A DNA stretch of 37,926 nucleotides, taken from positions 1 through 37,926 of the forward strand of contig JACPKE010000004.1 in the NCBI GenBank assembly GCA_016187205.1, given 5' to 3'. Position 1 is the stretch's first letter, and each line of letters begins with the position of its first letter. The stretch comes from Candidatus Brennerbacteria bacterium (GTDB taxonomy: Bacteria; Patescibacteriota; Minisyncoccia; UBA6257; JACPKE01). A program made the translations under genes and the position numbers. The notes beneath the pieces are model-generated. The model ran no database searches and was not told the origin of the DNA. It saw only the letters and a program-made list of their open reading frames with translations. This document shows positions 2,620 through 20,715 of this stretch, piece after piece.

Positions 2620-3483
2620 CTATCCTTGTATTTCGGAGAAAGTTTTTTTAGCAAAATCTATTGTCAGTCCGCTGATTGTTTTGCTTAAAAGAGCTTCCCC
2701 GTCATTTTGGTTGAGAACGGCGCCGTAATTTCCGTATAACAGATTTATTTCGTTTTGGGTTTCGGGAATTATAAAGCCTATGATTATGTTTTTTGAAGAA
2801 AAAGGCGCGGCTCCGTAGCCGGTCCAGTTTGGATTAGCGGTTGCTAATCGCTGGAAGCTCTGCTCGTTATTTTTAACGTCATACATAAGTTGTAAAAACC
2901 TGCCGTATATTTCCGCGCCGCTTTTGTTATTAATTTCAATTTCCGCTATAACAAGCGCCGATGCCGCATTGTCTGTTTTTTTTGAAGTTTCAATACAAGC
3001 GATGTCTTTTATGAAAATAAAAATCGGTTTATCCTGTTCAACGTAATTGCAGGGCGTCCGAAGCCCGCGAATCGGAACGCCGCCCCAGGTTTTGGTTATT
3101 TTGACGATTTTAAATTCCGTTTCCGGATATTCTTTCAGACTGAATTGGTAATTTAAATCAATTGAAGTTAAAATTTTGGCGTTTATTTCATTGGCCGGCG
3201 ATTGTACTGTTGTGAAGCTTGGCGCTGTTTGAACGGACGAAGTATTATTTTCCGGCTGCGACAGGGCCGTCGTGGATGTTGCGGTTTGCGCTGGATTTTG
3301 AGGGATTTCCGGCTGTATTATTATGGCTGTTTTTTCAAATGATCCGGAAAAATAATAATATCCCGAAAAAAATCCAATGATTAAAAATAAGCAGCCGGTT
3401 GCCGCAATTATTACGATTACCAGAGTTTTATTAAAAACAGGTTGGGGCTTAAAAGGCCTGATTGGAGGAGTCGGTTCAGTCAT
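2620..3483 (-). CDS. Hypothetical N-terminally anchored extracytoplasmic protein
   Basis: 287-aa ORF with one TM helix (LVIVIIAATGCLFLIIGFFSGYYYF), then a low-complexity S/T/P/Q linker and a globular part. No recognised family. Confidence 0.55.
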   Translation of the reverse strand: MTEPTPPIRPFKPQPVFNKTLVIVIIAATGCLFLIIGFFSGYYYFSGSFEKTAIIIQPEIPQNPAQTATSTTALSQPENNTSSVQTAPSFTTVQSPANEINAKILTSIDLNYQFSLKEYPETEFKIVKITKTWGGVPIRGLRTPCNYVEQDKPIFIFIKDIACIETSKKTDNAASALVIAEIEINNKSGAEIYGRFLQLMYDVKNNEQSFQRLATANPNWTGYGAAPFSSKNIIIGFIIPETQNEINLLYGNYGAVLNQNDGEALLSKTISGLTIDFAKKTFSEIQG

Positions 3484-3510
3484 TTTTTAATTATAGCAAG
3501 TTTTAAATTT

Positions 3511-3588
3511 TGGCGGACCCGACCGGATTTGAACCGGCGATCTTCCCCGTGACAGGGGGACGTGTTAACCGGGCTACACCACGGGTCC
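3511..3588 (-). tRNA. tRNA-Asp (GTC), CCA encoded
   Basis: Reverse complement is GGACCCGTGGTGTAGCCCGGTTAACACGTCCCCCTGTCACGGGGAAGATCGCCGGTTCAAATCCGGTCGGGTCCGCCA. It has a 7-bp acceptor stem, anticodon arm TCCCC-CTGTCAC-GGGGA, T-loop TTCAAAT, discriminator G and a CCA end. Confidence 0.9.
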
Positions 3589-3590
3589 AT

Positions 3591-4988
3591 TTATCGCAAC
3601 GTTTTCGTTAATTTCTTAAAAACTTTACCTCTTTCTTTGTAGTCTGTAAACATATCAAAGCTGGCTGATCCGGGGGAAAATAATATGATTAATTTAGTTT
3701 TTAGCTTATAGTTTTTTCCGCCAGAGGCGGATCCGCCTTCGGCGGAAGTTTTTAACTTATTAGCTTTTTTATATGTTAAATTAACAGCGCCTTTTAAATC
3801 TTTCGTTAAAATAATAGGCACACCGGTTTTTGAAATCGCTTTTTTTATTTTATTTTTATTTTCTCCGAATAATATAATCTCAAGCGTGTTGGAATTTTTT
3901 AAAGTGTTTGCCAATGGTTTGAAATCAAGCTTCTTGTCTTTGCCGCCGGCAATTAAAATTTTTGGTTCTTTAAAAGCTTTTATCGCGGCCGCGGTTGTCT
4001 GGGGATTGGTAGATGCGGAATCGTTATAGAAAAACATTCTAACATTCTTGAGAATGTCAGAATGTTTTTTAACAGGGATTTTAATTGATTTAATCAATTC
4101 TAAGCGATGCTCAAGGCCTTTAAAACCCTCAATTGTTTTTTTTATAATATTTTCTTTTATTTTTAAAAAGCGGCAGACTTCCGCGGCCATTAAAGCGTTT
4201 TTGATGTTATGTATCCCGTTAATTTTTAAATTTACGAAGTGGGACTTCGTAAATTTAACAGGGATTTTTTTGGCTCGGCTTTTTGCAATAATTGGTTTTA
4301 AGCCCGGCTCATTATTAAAATAAAATATTTTATCGCCGATTATTTGATTTTTTACAATTCCGGCTTTGGCATTTATATATTCTTTAAAGTTTTTATGCGA
4401 GTCTAGATGGTCGGGAAAAATATTTAAAATCACGGCGATGTTAGGGGAATATTTCAATTCTTGGAGCTGGAAGCTGGACATTTCCAGCACAACAATTGAT
4501 TTTTTTGATAAGCGCGGAAGTATTTCAATTGCTGGTTTGCCGATGTTGCCTGCCAAATAAACATCGCGCTTTGCGGCTTTTAAAATTTTATAAATCAAAG
4601 TTGAGGTTGTGCTTTTGCCTTTGGTGCCGGTTATGCCTATTGTCAGGCATTTGATTTTTTTAGTTTGTTCCAAAAATAATTCTGTGGAACTTGTTATTTT
4701 TGTTCCTGATTTCGCCGCTTCCTGTATTTCTTTTGTCATATACGGAATTCCTGGAGAACGGAAAATAACGTCAAAAATTTCCAAATTTTTAAGGTATTTT
4801 TCTCCGGATATGATTTTAACGCGTTTATTTTTTCCGCCTTTGGTGAAAAATAAAGATTTTACAGGTTTGCGGTCGCAAATCGCAATTTCATAATTTTTAT
4901 AATCGGGAGATTTTAAAAGATAGCGTAAAAGCGCTTGTCCTTCGCGGGCAAAACCAAGAATGGCGATTTTTTTATGAGTTTTTATCAA
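3591..4988 (-). CDS. murD: UDP-N-acetylmuramoyl-L-alanine--D-glutamate ligase
   Basis: Mur ligase P-loop GITGTKGKSTTSTL, an N-terminal Rossmann-like segment (IAILGFAREGQ), GIHNIKNALMAA and a LEHR motif. Length is typical of MurD. Contains two in-frame hairpin insertions (see the repeat features). Confidence 0.9.
   Translation of the reverse strand: MIKTHKKIAILGFAREGQALLRYLLKSPDYKNYEIAICDRKPVKSLFFTKGGKNKRVKIISGEKYLKNLEIFDVIFRSPGIPYMTKEIQEAAKSGTKITSSTELFLEQTKKIKCLTIGITGTKGKSTTSTLIYKILKAAKRDVYLAGNIGKPAIEILPRLSKKSIVVLEMSSFQLQELKYSPNIAVILNIFPDHLDSHKNFKEYINAKAGIVKNQIIGDKIFYFNNEPGLKPIIAKSRAKKIPVKFTKSHFVNLKINGIHNIKNALMAAEVCRFLKIKENIIKKTIEGFKGLEHRLELIKSIKIPVKKHSDILKNVRMFFYNDSASTNPQTTAAAIKAFKEPKILIAGGKDKKLDFKPLANTLKNSNTLEIILFGENKNKIKKAISKTGVPIILTKDLKGAVNLTYKKANKLKTSAEGGSASGGKNYKLKTKLIILFSPGSASFDMFTDYKERGKVFKKLTKTLR
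3717..3746 (-). repeat. 30-bp GC-rich double-hairpin element, in-frame in murD (encodes SAEGGSASGG)
   Basis: The coding strand reads TCCGCCGAAGGCGGATCCGCCTCTGGCGGA. This is 29/30 identical to the copy in gap (33062-33091). Confidence 0.85.
4226..4258 (-). repeat. 33-bp hairpin element (core GAAGTGGGACTTC), in-frame in murD (encodes ..FTKSHFV..)
   Basis: TTAAATTTACGAAGT-GGG-ACTTCGTAAATTTAA forms a 15-bp perfect stem with a 3-nt loop. The same 13-nt core occurs twice in pheT (7933-7972). Confidence 0.8.
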
Positions 4989-5054
4989 TGCGCTTTTAAA
5001 ATCAAAATTGTTTATTAATGGCTTGAATTATTGCAAGAGTGTTGATTTTTTTTG

Positions 5055-5126
5055 TGACGGCGGCAGGAATTGGACCTGCGACCTAGGGTTTATGAGTCCC
5101 TCGCTCTGCCACTGAGCTACGCCGCC
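5055..5126 (-). tRNA. tRNA with CAT anticodon (elongator Met or lysidine-type Ile2), no CCA encoded
   Basis: Reverse complement is GGCGGCGTAGCTCAGTGGCAGAGCGAGGGACTCATAAACCCTAGGTCGCAGGTCCAATTCCTGCCGCCGTCA. The cloverleaf fits, with anticodon loop CTCATAA. C11:G24 is elongator-type. The T-loop TCCAATT and an A31-A39 mismatch are slightly unusual. Confidence 0.8.
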
Positions 5127-5217
5127 ATATCACTTGTGAAAATTTTCTTTATAATGAATTTATGATTGCGTCGGTAAGATAGGTTTGCCATCTTTCTATA
5201 TTAATTAATCGAGCCGT

Positions 5218-5799
5218 TTATTCTGTAAATCTAAAAGTAGAAAAAATAGCTTGCCTTAATTTACTACCTTTAATATTTCTTTCTATTATTACGTTATCAT
5301 CTGCATCGCTGGCAATTTCTAGTAAATATATAAATTCATTTTTTTGAATCTCTCGATATGTATAACAACCACCTTCATCGCATTGTTTAAATATTCTACT
5401 CGGATAATCTAAAAACTCATCTTTTCTTTCAATATTATCTACTGGTGAATATGTTGATATTGCAATAAAAAAGAGATCATACCCACCATCTAGCTCAAAA
5501 TAAATTAGACCATCAGTTGTTAATGCGGGTTGATGCAATTCTTTATCGTTACGATTAGTTCGTCCAATTATTTTAACAATTGACGGATATTTAACTTCAA
5601 ATTTATACTTTTGATTTTTATAGATTTGCCAATTTTTATAGATTTGCCAATCAGCGGTTGTAGTGGTTATTGGTTTTACGATTTGAGTTTCTTTAACTTC
5701 TTGAATTGATTTTTGGATAATATATCGGATTCCAATAGCTCCACCTAAAACACCCATGATAACTATCAAAATTATTAAACGGTATATTTTTTGATTCAT
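5218..5799 (-). CDS. Hypothetical N-terminally anchored protein
   Basis: 193-aa ORF with one TM helix (LIILIVIMGVLGGAIGI) and a W..Y.N..Y.F...YP motif. That motif is shared with the C-terminal domains of the 2620..3483 and 34050..35330 products. Contains a perfect 18-bp tandem duplication (WQIYKN x2). Confidence 0.55.
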   Translation of the reverse strand: MNQKIYRLIILIVIMGVLGGAIGIRYIIQKSIQEVKETQIVKPITTTTADWQIYKNWQIYKNQKYKFEVKYPSIVKIIGRTNRNDKELHQPALTTDGLIYFELDGGYDLFFIAISTYSPVDNIERKDEFLDYPSRIFKQCDEGGCYTYREIQKNEFIYLLEIASDADDNVIIERNIKGSKLRQAIFSTFRFTE

Positions 5800-5868
5800 A
5801 AGATTAGTTGTTTGGTAAGTTCATGAATAAAAATATAAATGATTAATAACCATTTATATTTTTATTAG

Positions 5869-6175
5869 TTGCGGATCGGGGAATCGAACCCCACCCTAAA
5901 GGTTATGCTTGCTACTACGATTTTCATCGCCTCCAAAATTAGGAGTTTGTAGTCTGGACTATACCTTAATCCTGTTTTAACGGGATTCTCGCCATCTAGT
6001 CTCTACGCCTTCTTCATCTCTTCATAATTCAGAGAAACCGAAGCTTGGTTCGGTATTACCTCTCCGTTGTTGGAAGGGGCTCCACCGAGTTTGACGAGTG
6101 TCCATCACTTATTACTAAGTGACGAGCCCATATTAAGTTTTGAGCCTTTCGAGCTCACCAGAGCTCTTATCCGCC
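5869..6175 (-). tRNA. Intron-containing tRNA, predicted anticodon CAT (initiator-like features); exons 6175..6143 and 5907..5869
   Basis: 5' exon is GGCGGATAAGAGCTCTGGTGAGCTCGAAAGGCT and 3' exon is CATAACCTTTAGGGTGGGGTTCGATTCCCCGATCCGCAA. Joined, they give a 72-nt class I cloverleaf with anticodon arm AAAGG-CTCATAA-CCTTT and T-arm TGGGG-TTCGATT-CCCCG. The 5' exon ends in U and the intron ends in G, as group I splicing rules require. Confidence 0.75.
5908..6142 (-). ncRNA. Group I intron (IC3-like), 235 nt, in the anticodon loop between positions 33 and 34
   Basis: Contains core blocks that I recall from the Azoarcus pre-tRNA-Ile intron: GTCAAACTCGGTG, CCAAGCTTCGG, and GATGAAG..GCGTAGAGACTAGATGGC followed by TTAAGG. 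No ORF lies inside. Confidence 0.75.
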
Positions 6176-6264
6176 TTTATATTATATTTAAATACTTTTT
6201 TCTTGTCAAAATTTATGCGCCTCTTTAATTTGCCAATAAAATTTTAGCCATTACAATTAAAATA

Positions 6265-7287
6265 ATGGATATTTTGAAAAATTTGGAAGAAATAAAAAAA
6301 TTGGCTCATCAGGATATTGAGGCGATAAAAACTACGGAAGAATTTGAAAAAGTCCGTGTTAAATATTTAGGCCGGAAAAGCGAGTTAAGCCTGGCCTTGC
6401 GTTCTATTAAAGATTTGCCGATTGAAGAACGGCGTGAAGTCGGTTTTAAAGCTCAGAAGTTGAAACGGGCATTAGAGGAATTATTTTTAAGAAAATTAAG
6501 CGAGTTAAATGTCAAAGGTCAAATGTCAATGGTTAGTTTAGATATTACAAAACCTGGCAAAAAAATTGAATTGGGCCATTTGCATCCGCTTACAAAAATA
6601 TCCCAGGAAATTAAAAATATTTTCATCTCGCTTAATTTTTCCGTTGTTGATGGTCCGCAGGTTGAAATCGAACGTTACAATTTTGACGCATTGAATATTC
6701 CGGCTAACCATTCGGCCAGGGATATGTGGGACACCTTCTGGCTGCAAAGCAGCCAGAAGGTGTCCAGCAGCCAGCTGTCAGCAGCCAGCAGCCGGTTGTT
6801 ATTGCGCACCCACACCAGTCCGGTGCAAATTCGTTATATGGAATCGCATCAGCCGCCTTTTCAGATTATCGCTCCCGGGACAGTATATCGTTATGAAGCA
6901 ACCGATGCCACCCATAGTTTCCAGTTTCAGCAACTGGAAGGTTTAATGGTCGGGAAAAATATTTCTTTCGCTAATTTTAAATATGTTATCAGCGTTTTTT
7001 TGGAAAAATTTTTCAAGCGAAAAATTGAATTTATTCTGCGGCCGAATTATTATCCTTTTGTCGAGCCCGGCGTTGATGTTTATATAAAATGGAAAAATCG
7101 CTGGCTGGAAGTGGCTGGTGCCGGCATGGTTCATCCGAAAGTTTTTGAGGCGGCGCATTATAATCCGCGGGAATGGCAGGGCTTTGCTTTTGGGTTCGGG
7201 TTGGATCGTTTAGCGATGATTAAATATAATATTCCCGACGTCAGGCTTTTTTATTCCGGCGATTTGAGGTTTATTAAACAGTTTTAA
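6265..7287 (+). CDS. pheS: Phenylalanine--tRNA ligase alpha subunit
   Basis: Class II aaRS motifs: HPLT, NFDALNIPANHSARDMWDTFW, LLRTHTSPVQIRYM, APGTVYR, FQQLEG, GAGMVHP and FGFGLDRLAM. Carries a roughly 14-aa insert between DTFW and LLRTHTS. Confidence 0.95.
   Translation: MDILKNLEEIKKLAHQDIEAIKTTEEFEKVRVKYLGRKSELSLALRSIKDLPIEERREVGFKAQKLKRALEELFLRKLSELNVKGQMSMVSLDITKPGKKIELGHLHPLTKISQEIKNIFISLNFSVVDGPQVEIERYNFDALNIPANHSARDMWDTFWLQSSQKVSSSQLSAASSRLLLRTHTSPVQIRYMESHQPPFQIIAPGTVYRYEATDATHSFQFQQLEGLMVGKNISFANFKYVISVFLEKFFKRKIEFILRPNYYPFVEPGVDVYIKWKNRWLEVAGAGMVHPKVFEAAHYNPREWQGFAFGFGLDRLAMIKYNIPDVRLFYSGDLRFIKQF
6729..6765 (+). repeat. 17-bp-stem perfect hairpin inside pheS; the left arm is conserved coding sequence
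   Basis: GGACACCTTCTGGCTGC-AAA-GCAGCCAGAAGGTGTCC, followed by further GCAGCCAG copies at 6767-6774 and 6781-6788. Confidence 0.85.
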
Positions 7288-7302
7288 CTATTTATTATAG
7301 AT

Positions 7303-7707
7303 ATGTCCGAAATTTTAGAAAAAATAGAAAACGGGGAAAAAGAAAAAAATATTCAGACTCAGGAAAAAGAAGTACTGGATAATTTTCATCGCGAAATTCG
7401 GGAATTAAAAGAAAAAGAAGAAAAAGGAGAATTGAAAACAGTGCATTTAAAGGATATTAATCCGGATGAACTGGTGTTTGAAGATATGGCTAAGTGGGAG
7501 CAGGTAAAAAATAACTTAATCATTTTAGATGATTTGGAAGATTTCGCCGCCGAGCTTAGACAAGAAGGTAAAAAGCCGGAAGATAAAGAAGAGATTCCAG
7601 AATCCCGTCTTCTTTTTGCGGCCTTTTTACTTAATAAAGGGGCTGGTTTCAGGCAAATGAAAGCTCAAGAACAAAAGAAAATTTATAAAATGAAAGAAGC
7701 GGCTTAA
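7303..7707 (+). CDS. Hypothetical highly charged (E/K-rich) protein located between pheS and pheT
   Basis: 134-aa ORF tightly packed between pheS (ends 7287) and pheT (starts 7716). No recognised domain. Confidence 0.5.
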   Translation: MSEILEKIENGEKEKNIQTQEKEVLDNFHREIRELKEKEEKGELKTVHLKDINPDELVFEDMAKWEQVKNNLIILDDLEDFAAELRQEGKKPEDKEEIPESRLLFAAFLLNKGAGFRQMKAQEQKKIYKMKEAA

Positions 7708-7715
7708 AAATTAAT

Positions 7716-9794
7716 ATGAAATTTTCTTACACTTTAATAAAAAAAATAGTTCCAGGGCTTAAAAATAAAAACCAGCTTATTGAAGCGTTAAATGAACATT
7801 CTTTTGAAGTTGTTGACGCGGAAGGCGATTCCTTTGATGTTTCGGTTCCGCCCAACCGGTTTTCCGATGCGGCTTCGCATTGGGGAATAGCGCGGGAAAT
7901 TTCCGCGATTTTAAATTTGAAATTAAATATTAAGGAAGTGGGACTTCCTAATATTAGGAAGTCCCACTTCCTAAGAGTTGAGATTAAAGAAAAAAAGCTT
8001 TGCCGGCGTTATATCGCCGAATATTTTACCAACGTTAAAATTAAGCCGTCTCCTGTCTGGATGCAGAAAATTTTAAAAGACTGCGGTTTGCGGCCGATTA
8101 ATAATGTTGTTGATATTATGAATTACGTTATGCTGGAAACCGGACAGCCGTTACACGCTTTCGATTTTGATAAAATCGAAAGCGTTAAAATCAAAAATCA
8201 AAAATCAAAAATCAAAAATATTATAATTCGCACGGCAAAACACAGCGAGGAAATTAAAACATTAGATAATCAGCAATTTATTCTTAATGCCGATGTTCTG
8301 GTTATAGCCGATTCCAAATTTCCGTTAGCGATTGCCGGCGTAAAAGGCGGTAAAAAAGCCGAGGTGGATGCCAAAACTAAAAATATCATTGTTGAAGCCG
8401 CGAATTTTGACGGTCCGAATATTTACAGAACATCAAAATTTTTAAATTTAAAAACAGACGCTTCTTTAAGATTTTCTCATAGTTTAAGTCCGTTCTTAGC
8501 CGGTTTGGGATTGGCAAGGGCGGGAGAACTGCTTATAAAAGAAGGCGCTCGGCCGCAGGCTTATTACGATTCCCATCCGGACGGACATTTGAAAAAACTT
8601 ATTGAATTTAATATTGAAAAATTCAATCATTTAATCGGCGTTAATTTAAGTATTGGGCAGGCGGAGGATTATTTAAAGCGGCTCGGTTTTTTAACGGCTA
8701 AAAACTATAACCTAAAAACTAAAAGTTCATTCTTAGTTGAAGTTCCGCAATTTCGGGCGGATATAGAAAATTCTGAAGATTTGGCAGAGGAAATCAGCAG
8801 GCTTTACGGATATAATAAAATTAAATCTTTGCCTCCCGAGGTGCCGCTTAAAATAGCCAAAACTGATGATATTATTGTTTTTAAAGACCAATTGCGGAAA
8901 ATTTTAACCGGATTTGGCGCTAGTGAAGTTTATAATTATTCTTTTGTTTCAGCGACTGACTCAAGGCTTGGTTTTGATGGTGGTAAACCGGTTGAGCTTT
9001 TAAATCCGATTAGCCCGGCGTTCCAATTTTTGCGTCCGAATTTAGCCATTGGTTTGTTAAAAAATATCAAGGAAAATTTCCGTTTTTTTGAAGAGGCAAG
9101 GATTTTTGAAATAGGGAAAGTTTTTAACAAACGCGATGTAAAACTGCGAATGCGTCCGAATCAACGAATAAATTCAAATGATACTAATATAGAAGGCTGG
9201 CTTGCCAGCCGAAGCATTAGCGAAGGCTGGCGGCTGGGAATCGCGATTGGTTCTAAAAACAAGGAAATTATTTTTGAACTTAAAGGTTTAGTTTCCGAGT
9301 TGCTGAAAAAATCTGGACTGGTTGAATTTTTTATGCGTGATGGCGGCAAAAAATCAGATTTTTTACAAGCTGACGGGGCGTTAATGATTGAATCTGATAA
9401 TTCAATTATCGGATATCTTGGCAAGGCCGGTGATTTTACCAGCGTTTGCGAGATTGATTTGGAGAAATTGCTAAATCTTGTGGAAGGCGAATTGGAATTC
9501 CGGCCATTACCAAAGTATCCGTCTGTAATGCGAGATATTTCAATCCTTGTCAGCCGCGACATAAGAATCGGGGAAATTTTGGAAGCTATGAATTCGCCGG
9601 AAATTCAATATGTTGACGATGTTGATTTGATTGATGAATATTTTAGCGATAAGCTTGGCGGCAACCGCCAGAGCCTGACTTTTCGCGTTGTTTTTCGTTC
9701 GGAAGAAAAAACCCTTGAGGACAGGGAAGTTGATAAAGAATTGGTTAAAATAGTCAATATTTTGAAAGAAAAATTTATGGCTGAAATACGTTGA
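7716..9794 (+). CDS. pheT: Phenylalanine--tRNA ligase beta subunit (short form lacking the N-terminal tRNA-binding domain)
   Basis: B3/4-type region (RYIAEYF..VKIKPSPVWMQKIL..CGLRPINNVVDIMNYVMLETGQPLHAFD), B5-like region, and a C-terminal FDX-ACB-like end (YPSVMRDISILV...QSLTFRVVFRS..KTL). Position directly after pheS supports the call. Confidence 0.9.
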   Translation: MKFSYTLIKKIVPGLKNKNQLIEALNEHSFEVVDAEGDSFDVSVPPNRFSDAASHWGIAREISAILNLKLNIKEVGLPNIRKSHFLRVEIKEKKLCRRYIAEYFTNVKIKPSPVWMQKILKDCGLRPINNVVDIMNYVMLETGQPLHAFDFDKIESVKIKNQKSKIKNIIIRTAKHSEEIKTLDNQQFILNADVLVIADSKFPLAIAGVKGGKKAEVDAKTKNIIVEAANFDGPNIYRTSKFLNLKTDASLRFSHSLSPFLAGLGLARAGELLIKEGARPQAYYDSHPDGHLKKLIEFNIEKFNHLIGVNLSIGQAEDYLKRLGFLTAKNYNLKTKSSFLVEVPQFRADIENSEDLAEEISRLYGYNKIKSLPPEVPLKIAKTDDIIVFKDQLRKILTGFGASEVYNYSFVSATDSRLGFDGGKPVELLNPISPAFQFLRPNLAIGLLKNIKENFRFFEEARIFEIGKVFNKRDVKLRMRPNQRINSNDTNIEGWLASRSISEGWRLGIAIGSKNKEIIFELKGLVSELLKKSGLVEFFMRDGGKKSDFLQADGALMIESDNSIIGYLGKAGDFTSVCEIDLEKLLNLVEGELEFRPLPKYPSVMRDISILVSRDIRIGEILEAMNSPEIQYVDDVDLIDEYFSDKLGGNRQSLTFRVVFRSEEKTLEDREVDKELVKIVNILKEKFMAEIR
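7933..7972 (+). repeat. 40-bp perfect palindrome in pheT made of two inverted GGAAGT-GGG/CCC-ACTTCC hairpins
   Basis: AGGAAGTGGGACTTCCTAAT|ATTAGGAAGTCCCACTTCCT. It encodes ..EVGLPNIRKSHFL.. and shares its 13-nt core with murD 4226-4258. Confidence 0.85.
8187..8220 (+). repeat. 7-bp microsatellite (AAAAATC, about 4.9 units) inside the pheT coding sequence
   Basis: AAAATC AAAAATC AAAAATC AAAAATC AAAAATA, encoding KIKNQKSKIKNI. Confidence 0.9.
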
Positions 9795-9865: not shown

Positions 9866-10702
9866 TTGTACAATGAAAAATATAAGATTTGCGAAGGCAA
9901 GTCTAAAATTATCTGGCAAGATCCTAATGATTCAAGTCAGGTTTTAATTCAAAATAAGTCTGTTATTACGGCCGGCGACGGAAAAAAACGGGATTTCTTG
10001 CCAAACAAGGACGAGATGGCGACTGAAACTACTTGTAATGTATTTCATTTTTTACATACCCATGGAGTAGCTACCCATTACCTGAAGCGTGCAAACAGCA
10101 TAACTTTTTTGGCCAAGAAAGTTTCAATGATTCCAATTGAAGTAGTTATCAGAAAGATAGCTTTTGGTTCTTATCTTAAACGGCATCCCGAGGTTCCCGA
10201 AGGCGCTTTGTTTTCTCCGTTAGTGACAGAATTCTTTTTAAAAGACGATGAGAACCATGATCCGTTGATGATATGGGAGGAAAATGAAAATAAATTTATA
10301 CTTTGCAATTCCCAAGAACCATTGGGGGATGGATGGATTCGTCTTTTTGATCCGTCATTATTAGTTAACGGTTCGCTTATTCCTAAAAATACTCTAGAAA
10401 TTCAGAATATCCGCAAGCTGGCAGTGGAAGTTTTTTGGCTGCTGGAAAAAGTTTGGGCTGATTTGCAGGTTCAGTTGGTTGATTTAAAAATTGAAATGGG
10501 GTTTGATTCAGAAACCGGAAATTTATTGGTTGCTGATGTTATAGACAATGATTCTTGGAGAATTTGGCCCCAAAGCGATAAGTTTCAGATGAAAGATAAA
10601 CAGGTTTATCGTGATTTTAAAGAAATTACGCCGGAAGCAATAAAAGCTATTCAAGAAAATTATAAATGGGTTTCTGAAATAACATTTCGATTTAAGTATT
10701 AA
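9866..10702 (+). CDS. purC: Phosphoribosylaminoimidazole-succinocarboxamide (SAICAR) synthase
   Basis: Block-by-block match to E. coli PurC as I recall it: EGKSKIIW, ITAGDGKKRDFLPNKDEM, MIPIEVVIRKIAFGSYLKR, FFLKDDENHDPLM, LVDLKIEMGF, DNDSWRIW and MKDKQVYR. TTG start 5 nt after GGAAAGGAGA. Confidence 0.85.
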   Translation: MYNEKYKICEGKSKIIWQDPNDSSQVLIQNKSVITAGDGKKRDFLPNKDEMATETTCNVFHFLHTHGVATHYLKRANSITFLAKKVSMIPIEVVIRKIAFGSYLKRHPEVPEGALFSPLVTEFFLKDDENHDPLMIWEENENKFILCNSQEPLGDGWIRLFDPSLLVNGSLIPKNTLEIQNIRKLAVEVFWLLEKVWADLQVQLVDLKIEMGFDSETGNLLVADVIDNDSWRIWPQSDKFQMKDKQVYRDFKEITPEAIKAIQENYKWVSEITFRFKY

Positions 10703-19035: not shown

Positions 19036-20715
19036 ATGGAAGAAAGATTGAATAATTTTCAGCAATTATCCGAATTAGGACTGCCTGATTTTCCGGCGGA
19101 AGAATGGAGCGACGAAGAACGTTTTTTGTTGGAACCGTTTTTTACCAATCTTGACGGCCATGTTACGGTGATTCGCAATTTGCCGCCAGAATTGGTAGGC
19201 GCGCTTTGTTCCAAAGCCAGCCGGGCCACCGGTTCTTTGATACGGGTATTTCTTAATGAATATTTAAAGCCGATTTTGCAGGGCGAAGATAAAAAGCTGG
19301 TTAAAGATTTGAAAGCGTTTGTCGCGATGTTTAGAGAATACAGTCCCGATAAAGTTTTGAATAACCAGCTGGCCAGGAAATTTTATGTTAGATGGCTTGC
19401 CGAGTTTGGCGATGATTCAATAGCGCAAATGACCGGCGTCCATGTTAATTTGCTCTATGTTTCACAGGTGGCGATGAAATTTATTGAAGACCAGCGGATG
19501 GGTTTGGAACCGATTGAAAAATCCACAAGATACGTGAATTACGGACAGAAGGTTGGCGGCCGGTATTTGTATTTTATACCGTTTTCTGAGTGGAATACCG
19601 TCTCAGAACTTGATGATAGTAAACTTTATAAAGAAACCCTTGATAATCTTTTCAATGTTTATAACTTGCTCGTGCCAAAGCTAACAGAATGGCTTAAGAA
19701 AAATTATGAAGAAAAATCTTCAGTTCTTGAGAAAAAAGCTTTTGACACGTTAAGAGGTTTATTGCCGATGGCGACTGTCAGTCAGGTTGCTTTTAGGGGC
19801 AATGCCCAGGCCTGGGAATATCTTGTTAATCGCACGGCGCGTTATCCGTTAAATGAGGTTAGGTTAATAAGCTCAGCCATCAGAGAGGAATTAAATTTAG
19901 AAATACCGTCTTTAATGGCAAGACTTGCGGAACCGAAATCGCAATTCTATCAAGCTTATTTGGCCGGAAAACGGGAAAAGGCAAAAAAGATAGCCAAAAC
20001 ATATGAATCATCAACGTTTGTTTACGCCCCTGATGTTGCCTTGATTGAATACGATTCTGACGCCGAAGATAAAATTTTAGCCGGAATTATGTTTCCTTAT
20101 TCCAATGAATGTTGGGGCAATATTATTGAATGGGTTAAGAGTTTGAGTTATAGCGAGAAAGAAAAAATTTTTGATGAGTATTTTACCGCCAGAACCGAAC
20201 GCTGGTATAAAGTATCCAGGGCTTTTGAAAATTCTTATTTGCGTTTTGAGATAGTTGTGAATGCGGGCGCTTACAGGGATTTGCACCGGCATCGGATGCA
20301 GACTCAAGACAGGCAGTATTTTACCATAAATCACGGTTATGATGTGCCGGAGGAGGTTGTTTCCGCCGGAATGGAAAAGGAATTCAGGGCGGCCTTGGAT
20401 TCGGTTAAGCCTTTGTTTGTTATGTTGAATGAAAAATACGGCCCGGAACTGGCTCAATACGTTGTGCCAATGGCTTACAGAATGAGATTTTATCAGTGGC
20501 AGAATTTCCGGCAGTTTTTCTGGGAAAGCGAATTGCGGACTATTTCGCAGGGCCATCCGGATTATCGCATGATTGAACAAATGAAATTCAAACTGGTGAA
20601 AGAAAAGTTTCCTTTATTGGCAAAATATATGAAAGTTGACACAAAAGATTATTTTTTTGCCAGAAGAGGCGTTGAAGAAAAGATTAAGGCAAAGACGGAC
20701 AAGCTGTTAAAGTAA
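19036..20715 (+). CDS. thyX: FAD-dependent thymidylate synthase, tandem-fused (pseudo-dimeric) long form
   Basis: The C-terminal half has YRDLHRHRMQTQDRQY (RHR block) and FFWESELRTISQGHPDYRMIEQ. These parallel T. maritima ThyX RHRIASYNELSGRY and [28 protein letters not shown] as I recall them. The N-terminal half has degenerate equivalents (FIEDQRMGLEPIEKSTRYV and AFRGNAQAWEYLVNRTARYPLNEVR). Confidence 0.75.
   Translation: MEERLNNFQQLSELGLPDFPAEEWSDEERFLLEPFFTNLDGHVTVIRNLPPELVGALCSKASRATGSLIRVFLNEYLKPILQGEDKKLVKDLKAFVAMFREYSPDKVLNNQLARKFYVRWLAEFGDDSIAQMTGVHVNLLYVSQVAMKFIEDQRMGLEPIEKSTRYVNYGQKVGGRYLYFIPFSEWNTVSELDDSKLYKETLDNLFNVYNLLVPKLTEWLKKNYEEKSSVLEKKAFDTLRGLLPMATVSQVAFRGNAQAWEYLVNRTARYPLNEVRLISSAIREELNLEIPSLMARLAEPKSQFYQAYLAGKREKAKKIAKTYESSTFVYAPDVALIEYDSDAEDKILAGIMFPYSNECWGNIIEWVKSLSYSEKEKIFDEYFTARTERWYKVSRAFENSYLRFEIVVNAGAYRDLHRHRMQTQDRQYFTINHGYDVPEEVVSAGMEKEFRAALDSVKPLFVMLNEKYGPELAQYVVPMAYRMRFYQWQNFRQFFWESELRTISQGHPDYRMIEQMKFKLVKEKFPLLAKYMKVDTKDYFFARRGVEEKIKAKTDKLLK

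Follow-up and report, generated by a model that had tools for sequence, protein, structure and literature searches.

The subject of this study is an interrupted transfer RNA (tRNA) gene in a contig of a Candidatus Brennerbacteria bacterium (JACPKE010000004.1); the whole stretch analyzed, 37,926 nucleotides (nt) long, is called the window here. On the minus strand, positions 6175..5869 form a tRNA(CAU) gene that is interrupted between U33 and C34 by an intron of 235 nt (6142..5908). The best explanation, to which we assign a probability of roughly 0.92, is that this is an initiator-type tRNA(CAU) gene of a small-genome bacterium, split at U33/C34 (a slash in a sequence marks a splice junction) by a compact group I intron that has no open reading frame (ORF) and belongs to the family of cyanobacterial tRNA-fMet introns. 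The sequence of the intron, a fold backed by covariation, its exact boundaries and its membership of that family were established directly. The original prediction, made by reading the DNA, had claimed a tRNA(CAU) with a 235-nt group I intron; its coordinates, its length and the letters at its splice sites proved to be exact, and the Rfam group I intron model (RF00028) matched above its gathering score.

The match to RF00028, from a search suggested together with the prediction, was significant. It covered positions 6152..5931 of the minus strand and the full model (1-253) with 59.0 bits (gathering score 50, E = 1.2e-12), and it was the sole non-tRNA Rfam family matched in the 38-kb window. 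The same model gave scores of 57.6 for the relative in Scytonema, 61.3 for Trichodesmium, 61.6 for Berkelbacteria and 72.3 for Saccharibacteria, and the window intron thus lies inside the range of its relatives. When the two exons were spliced in silico, ARAGORN returned a normal cloverleaf and called tRNA-Met(cat), as expected from the claim that a clean cloverleaf would form after removal of 235 nt. A default ARAGORN run on the window missed the interrupted tRNA(CAU) and reported only a tRNA-Asp (3511-3588) and an elongator-type tRNA-Met (5054-5126). No CCA is encoded by the 3′ exon in the window.

Both the intron and the second exon start with CA, and comparison of DNA sequences alone therefore permits a shift of the junction by 0-2 nt. 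The junction was set at shift 0 because this is the sole placement in which the exon ends in U and the intron ends in G. The prediction that the 5′ exon ends in U and the intron in G was confirmed, with U33 forming a U33·G15 pair in P1 and the terminal G (omega G, G235) at 5908.

A scan of metagenomes with 24 nt of the 5′ exon as query returned one contig (L385), from Hainich groundwater (well H43, 0.1-um fraction). Its tRNA has no intron and reads CGCGGAC AA GAGCTCTGGTGAGCTC G AAAGG CT/CATAA CCTTT AGGG TGGGGTCCGATTCCCCG GTCCGCA A. Across the predicted junction the sequence is ..GAAAGGCT/CATAACCTTTAGGG.., and both exons of the window are 95% identical to this allele. Because the intron-less allele is joined exactly at the predicted junction, it fixes the intron boundary. 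Downstream of the allele lie the same tRNA-Met (92% identity to that of the window) and then a tRNA-Asp. At the allele itself (positions 993-1065) the Rfam tRNA model was silent at default filters and gave 36.1 bits in sensitive mode (gathering score 29); this initiator type is divergent and easily missed even without an intron. The Rfam E-value, the covariation in the family described below, and the intron-less allele exclude a chance resemblance as the source of a tRNA(CAU) split by a group I intron.

A P1-P9 model including the P3/P7 pseudoknot was drawn from the window sequence and was then tested on a MAFFT alignment of 57 ORF-less relatives with mutual identity below 85%. In these relatives 88.8% of the cells in the model were paired, compared with 76.2% in shuffles (0 of 500 as high) and 29-48% when the partners were slid; the model was derived from one aligned sequence, which gives some bias relative to the slid controls, although the margin is large. 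Both sides had changed in 35 of the 56 model pairs. By helix, P3 was 89% paired with 6 doubly changed pairs, P4 was 100% paired, P8 was 88% paired with 5 doubly changed pairs, and P9b was 99.6% paired with 4. The base pairs of P6 were 100% paired across the relatives, and one of them had 11 double changes. All five pairs of P7 were invariant in 57 of 57 relatives; being invariant, this helix, although 100% paired, is uninformative on covariation. The columns of P2 were just 61% paired, since the alignment is poor in this peripheral part. In P9.0 a compensatory change from C-G to U-A was found in the window and in 5 relatives. Support is good for each of P3, P4, P6, P8, P9.0 and the P9 hairpin.

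The pairings at the splice sites were examined in the same way. In the window P1 has 6 base pairs (bp), with the U33·G15 wobble at the 5′ splice site, and P10 has 4 bp (C34-G14, A35-U13, U36-A12, and A37-U11). The splice-site U·G was kept in 57 of 57 relatives; the terminal G of the relatives was imposed by the search pattern and is not independent evidence there. The pair between exon position 31 and the guide covaries, being GC in 30 relatives and AU in 27, and therefore the guide co-varies with the host tRNA. From established group I architecture, the bulged A of P7 together with the G142-C186 pair would form the guanosine-binding site.

At 84 of the 88 family columns with conservation of at least 90% the window intron agrees with its relatives; the compensatory P9.0 pair accounts for two of the four deviations. 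The three sequence blocks that had been quoted as close to the Azoarcus core occur at intron positions 48-58, 95-105 and 137-152 and lie within the most conserved blocks of the 57-sequence alignment. Judged by the conserved columns, the compensatory changes and an Rfam score within the range of its relatives, the intron looks intact. It contains no ORF, and so no homing endonuclease of the I-Ssp6803I type, the longest stop-free stretch being 40 codons. The architecture is compact: P2 is present, P5abc, P7.1 and P7.2 are not, and there are GNRA loops on P2 and P9. Together with the homology to the cyanobacterial tRNA-fMet introns, this architecture makes the intron a candidate member of subgroup IC3, to which the literature assigns its relatives.

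The insertion site was compared with those of other introns. In a pre-test with IMG/VR, two homologues (L161 and L133) had the layout ..CT/...AAG/CATAA.. and shared the 3′ motif AGTCCAGACYACAAAC, followed 27-36 nt later by G/CATAA. Used alone, GTAGAGACTAGAYGG (from the core) and AGTCCAGACYACAAAC each gave at least 120 IMG/VR matches; they are too general, being present in many phage group I introns. The pattern used for the genome scan (one genome per species, 185,579 species) was AGTCCAGACYACAAAC plus GCATAA, and it found at least 119 loci. The genome of the window itself is not among the 119 loci listed, an absence that carries little weight given that there were at least that many. A total of 131 motif occurrences were analyzed, made up of the 119 genome loci listed, the window and 11 viral loci. 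Among these listed matches a complete tRNA(CAU) could be parsed in 113 of the 131, and all 113 were split at U33/C34 (CT/...G/CATAA). The original prediction had set this 33/34 site apart from the tRNA-Leu U/AA site, which was correct, and had implied that it was novel, which it is not. U33/C34 is the standard site for introns of CAU tRNAs, and the window intron is a further member of a known family.

The hosts, again among the matches listed, fell into two clean classes by position 11:24 (113 parsed hosts, window included): 56 had A11:U24 and 57 had C11:G24. In the A11:U24 class, which is the initiator class, positions 1:72 were unpaired in 53 of 56 hosts (25 C·C, 14 C·U, 10 C·A, 3 U·U and 1 G·A), and the other 3 had U-A. 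In the C11:G24 class 1:72 was paired in 57 of 57; these hosts are of the elongator type, tRNA-Met or tRNA-Ile2. Cyanobacteria in the initiator class included Scytonema PCC 10023, many Nostoc, Trichodesmium IMS101, Oscillatoria and Snowella, and its other members came from Nitrospirales, Rhodothermales, Chloroflexota, Planctomycetota, Omnitrophota, Elusimicrobiota and Patescibacteria (UBA926 and Saccharibacteria). The elongator class included Paraburkholderia, Rhodoferax, Limnohabitans, Pyrinomonadaceae, Bacillota and some Saccharibacteria. For loci in Parcubacteria, Kaiserbacteria and Berkelbacteria, which the parser did not resolve, the U33/C34 layout was judged by eye. These counts hint that the family is far larger than the few dozen bacterial cases in the literature consulted, with members in phage tRNA arrays and in over a dozen phyla of bacteria.

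The window intron is 66-68% identical to the initiator-class copies of Saccharibacteria (L374) and Nostoc, and its P9a/P9b layout is nearly the same as that in a Berkelbacteria locus (L358). Most members of the family are about 244 nt long and ORF-less, those of Scytonema and Nostoc included. Long members of about 600-680 nt in the initiator class (L279, L301, L330 and others) carry on the sense strand a homologue of I-Ssp6803I of 149 amino acids (aa); at the U33/C34 site this ORF was found in copies of about 640 nt from Patescibacteria (L279 and L301) and from Snowella (653 nt), and that of L279 matched the I-Ssp6803I structure (PDB 2OST) with E = 1e-51. I-Ssp6803I itself is encoded by the 655-nt tRNA-fMet intron of Synechocystis PCC 6803 (PMC1995217). 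The homologues in the long relatives therefore tie the family to the Synechocystis tRNA-fMet intron. In long introns of the elongator class (L268, L313, L366, L377 and others) the ORF is antisense, about 122 aa long, and contains the HNH-like motif CLNCHAEIHNP. In the initiator-type 3′ exons of five loci (L276, L291, L324, L343 and L358, three of them titled Patescibacteria) the T loop is TGCAATT, with G55 for the conserved U; the T loop of the window is normal (TTCGATT).

The window tRNA has A11:U24 (D stem GAGC/GCTC), and its positions 1:72 are unpaired (G1xA72). Its acceptor stem consists of G2-C71, C3-G70, G4-C69 and G5-C68, followed by A73; positions 2-5:68-71, A72 and A73 are equal to those of what we take to be the E. 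coli tRNA-fMet sequence. The intron-less groundwater allele carries C1xA72, which is canonical; the window has G1. On these grounds the host appears to be an initiator-type (tRNA-fMet-like) tRNA, and the mature tRNA would be expected to function in initiation. The original prediction had called the gene a CAU tRNA; the anticodon stands, and A11:U24 together with the unpaired 1:72 refines it to the initiator type.

Several observations weigh against the explanation given at the outset. The Rfam score of the window intron is just 9 bits over the threshold. A conserved adenine in J4/5 (A in 54 of 56 relatives) is G in the window, a change that might make the splice-site wobble pair dock less well. 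The G·A mismatch at 1:72 was found in the window alone among the 113 parsed hosts, and in the anticodon stem (A29-U41, G30-C40 and G31-C39) one of the three successive G-C pairs that are typical of initiators is missing. Splicing and catalysis by the window intron are also predicted from its sequence. The modest Rfam score and the J4/5 change would suit a decayed relic in a pseudogene that does not splice, with another initiator tRNA gene serving the cell, as would the lack of a homing endonuclease gene and the fact that the visible portion of the genome is 38 kb. We consider this very unlikely. The intron has kept nearly all of the conserved columns, and its helices are held by compensatory changes such as that in P9.0; the exons are intact and close to the intron-less allele, with a perfect consensus promoter in front; and most family members of about 244 nt, those of Scytonema and Nostoc among them, are equally ORF-less.

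The incomplete anticodon stem bears on a different question, whether the tRNA is instead an elongator tRNA-Met or a tRNA-Ile2 (CAU with lysidine), as in Azoarcus and Burkholderia. The full G29-G31:C39-C41 run is absent, and CAU tRNAs of the elongator type make up 57 of the 113 family hosts (those of Burkholderiales, Pyrinomonadaceae and some Saccharibacteria). Nevertheless, all of the elongator-class hosts have C11:G24 and a paired 1:72, whereas the window has neither. The AU/GC/GC anticodon stem recurs in 8 other initiator-class hosts. Mycoplasma initiators likewise have an AU/GC/GC anticodon stem. The acceptor match to the presumed E. coli sequence and the C1xA72 of the intron-less allele also point to an initiator, and a separate elongator-type tRNA(CAU) lies 750 nt away (5054-5126), so that we give the elongator assignment very little credence. 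That second tRNA (minus strand; G1-C72 and C11-G24) has an A31xA39 mismatch at the bottom of its anticodon stem; it may be a tRNA-Met or a tRNA-Ile2. The intron option of ARAGORN offered yet another reading, a tRNA-Leu(caa) i(37,235) at 5868..6175; here the anticodon would be CAA and the 235-nt intron would follow position 37, where protein-spliced introns canonically lie. This placement moves the intron three bases downstream, which would leave A as the last base of the 5′ exon and U as that of the intron. It clashes with the group I fold detected by Rfam, and neither the U·G of P1 nor the pairing in P10 is compatible with it. Its product would be CUCAAAACC, compared with CUCAUAACC in the intron-less relative, and a tRNA-Leu, being of class II, needs a long variable arm, whereas the window tRNA has 4 nt. 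To our knowledge the tRNA splicing endonuclease is absent from bacteria. We rejected the placement, which breaks the rule of U before the intron and G at its end and yields CTCAAAACC rather than the CTCATAACC of the intron-less allele, and we regard a tRNA-Leu(CAA) as next to impossible.

If the gene is an initiator-type tRNA(CAU) gene with a group I intron, as we prefer, the following pathway would apply. The precursor would be transcribed from the consensus promoter just upstream, and the intron would fold into P1-P9. The guide UAUGGGCU would hold GGCU33, with its U·G wobble, in P1, and free guanosine bound at P7 would attack the phosphate after U33. The guide would next pair with CAUA of exon 2 (P10), G235 would move into the G site, and the 3′-OH of U33 would attack after G235. 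The exons would then be joined, giving the anticodon loop CUCAUAA, and the intron would be released. The features on which this pathway draws are listed in Table 1.

Table 1 Features of the interrupted tRNA(CAU) gene in the window
Feature	Position	Strand	Description
Promoter-like site, TTGACA-17 nt-TATAAT	6181..6209	minus	12/12 consensus; ends 6 nt upstream of the tRNA 5′ end
5′ exon, tRNA positions 1-33	6143..6175	minus	33 nt; GGCGGAT AA GAGC TCTGGTGA GCTC G AAAGG CT; ends in U33; 94.7% identity to the intron-less allele (L385)
Group I intron	5908..6142	minus	235 nt; begins CAAAAC, ends GCAAG; RF00028 match
Internal guide UAUGGGCU, intron 11-18	6125..6132	minus	GGCU with exon GGCU33 = P1; UAUG with exon-2 CAUA = P10
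P2 hairpin	6105..6122	minus	7 bp; GUAA tetraloop at 6115..6112; fold model
P3 5′ strand, J3/4, P4, J4/5, P5	6050..6098	minus	P3 5′ strand 6098..6092; P4 6088..6083 with 6055..6050; fold model
P6 and extension	6008..6048	minus	CCAAGCUUCGG ... GAAGAAGG; fold model
P7 5′ strand	5998..6003	minus	GAGACU; bulged A141, then G142 pairing with C186 (5957)
P3 3′ strand	5988..5994	minus	UGGCGAG; pseudoknot with P7; fold model
P8 hairpin, J8/7, P7 3′ strand	5956..5987	minus	P8 5987..5968; J8/7 5967..5961; P7 3′ strand AGUCC 5960..5956; fold model
P9 region	5908..5952	minus	P9.0 CUAC with GUAG; extra P9a 5945..5931; P9b GAAA tetraloop 5925..5922; tail CAA; fold model
3′ exon, tRNA positions 34-73	5869..5907	minus	39 nt; CAT AA CCTTT AGGG TGGGG TTCGATT CCCCG ATCCGCA A; CAU anticodon, AA, CCUUU, 4-nt variable loop, T arm, ATCCGCA, discriminator A; 95% identity to the intron-less allele

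The TTGACA-17-TATAAT site is the sole perfect consensus in 5000..6400, and its sequence suggests that it functions as a promoter. Given a sigma-70 consensus at this distance, transcription may start at or beside the mature tRNA 5′ end. The window is otherwise ordinary bacterial chromosome (38.6% G+C) encoding a MurD-like ligase, PheS, PheT, PurC, GyrB, NusG, L11, ThyX, DHFR, Tmk, GatB, GapA and Rpe. Homologues of a neighboring 181-aa protein (1928-2473) are encoded next to the intron-bearing tRNA in loci of Kaiserbacteria, Saccharibacteria and Parcubacteria, and the tRNA order fMet(intron)-Met-Asp is found also at a Saccharibacteria locus. Along with the 0.1-um groundwater origin of L385, these similarities suggest that the bacterium is probably one of the Patescibacteria. 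Searches for exact copies of the PheS and GyrB of the window gave no match, and the 181-aa protein was matched only on two short Logan contigs. In an ORF of 559 aa on the plus strand (19036-20715) Pfam reported two stretches of ThyX (Thy1), the best being residues 336-526, and found no other family in the long N-terminal part.

Related introns were also observed in viral DNA. Among the matches listed for IMG/VR contigs (L001-L263), 128 of 168 occurrences of AGTCCAGACYACAAAC fall within tRNA genes to which ARAGORN assigns an intron. These are mostly tRNA-Leu(UAA) with the classical U/AA site (59), the rest being Arg(UCU), Met(CAU), Phe and further isotypes. It looks as if group I introns are very common in phage tRNA genes. 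One of the contigs used in the pre-test (L161, 84.5 kb) has about 14 tRNA genes in a dense array at approximately 3200-9200, with two separate RF00028 matches, one of them in an initiator-like tRNA (C1xC72) with the U33/C34 site as in the window. The pattern 'G + CATAACC + T arm' was rejected as a detector of 33/34 introns and gave way to AGTCCAGACYACAAAC plus GCATAA in the genome scan: about 38 of 44 viral matches (L121-L164) were 3′ halves of tRNA-fMet without an intron. Such halves, which have neither a 5′ half nor an intron upstream, are probably copies of phage attachment sites. Two viral tRNA(CAU)-like genes (L134, ~630-680; L153, ~10610-10660) are uninterrupted and have G at position 33 in place of the universal U (loop CGCATAA), and in another viral contig (L136) the anticodon loop is seemingly shortened.

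The significance of these results is mainly practical, in that standard tRNA finders miss such genes: ARAGORN gave a blank by default and a mistaken tRNA-Leu in intron mode. The paper on tRNAscan-SE 2.0 described 36 bacterial genomes in which the tRNA for fMet or Ile2 was missed through group I introns, and stated that the program was not designed to detect such intron-bearing genes (PMC8450103). Because the interrupted gene is missed by the finders, the genome would be scored as lacking an initiator tRNA, and apparent loss of this tRNA matters for completeness checks of the small genomes of the candidate phyla radiation (CPR) (PMC8172020). It is conceivable, though we think it unlikely, that the intron-bearing gene is the sole initiator tRNA gene of this reduced Patescibacterial genome, in which case each translation initiation would depend on a guanosine-dependent ribozyme and the supply of initiator tRNA would be coupled to the guanosine nucleotide pool. 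The window intron leaves the known splicing mechanism unchanged; it adds a compact, ORF-less copy, and an empty-site allele in a related organism, to a family of mobile ribozymes known since the early 1990s.

The closest known system is the cyanobacterial tRNA-fMet group I intron, reportedly described by Biniszkiewicz, Cesnaviciene and Shub in 1994 from Synechocystis PCC 6803, Scytonema and Dermocarpa (cited in PMC8450103). Like it, the window intron has an initiator tRNA as host and the U33/C34 site, which was read in the genomes of Scytonema PCC 10023, Nostoc and Trichodesmium. The core blocks and the P1-P9 fold are also alike (the 66-68% for Nostoc is a global identity), and the longer Patescibacteria copies at U33/C34 encode the I-Ssp6803I homologue. 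The window intron differs in being ORF-less, in its length (235 nt compared with at least 244 nt), in lacking the cyanobacterial P1-loop extension, and in having the extra P9a, which is common to the Berkelbacteria and Parcubacteria copies. The hosts differ as well: the window tRNA has G1xA72 and an AU/GC/GC stem, whereas the cyanobacterial tRNAs have C1xC72 or C1xA72 and GC/GC/GC, and the bacterium that carries the window intron is apparently a Patescibacterium.

The Azoarcus intron, which is compact and self-splicing, likewise interrupts the anticodon loop of a CAU tRNA; it has GNRA tetraloops on P2 and P9, and its blocks, which we take to be GUCAAAUUCGG, CCAAGCUUCGG and GUAGAGACUAGACGGC, are near-identical to those of the window. 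However, its host is an elongator-type tRNA-Ile2, and Reinhold-Hurek and Shub (1992) are said to have placed it after the anticodon (CAU/) and not before; the Burkholderiales tRNA(CAU) introns that we examined sit at 33/34. The tRNA-Leu(UAA) intron of cyanobacteria and plastids belongs to the same broad family of group I introns in tRNA anticodon loops, and many phage copies with the P7/P9 motif of the window are found at the U/AA site. It differs in being inserted between positions 34 and 35 of a class II tRNA; the core of the Anabaena intron is presumably GCAGAGACUCGACGG and not GUAGAGACUAGAUGG. The protein-spliced introns of archaea and eukaryotes (bulge-helix-bulge, mostly 37/38) resemble the window intron in lying in tRNA anticodon loops, but they have no ribozyme fold and are cut by an endonuclease and joined by a ligase, whereas the window intron fits the group I model and follows the rule of U at the end of the exon and G at the end of the intron.

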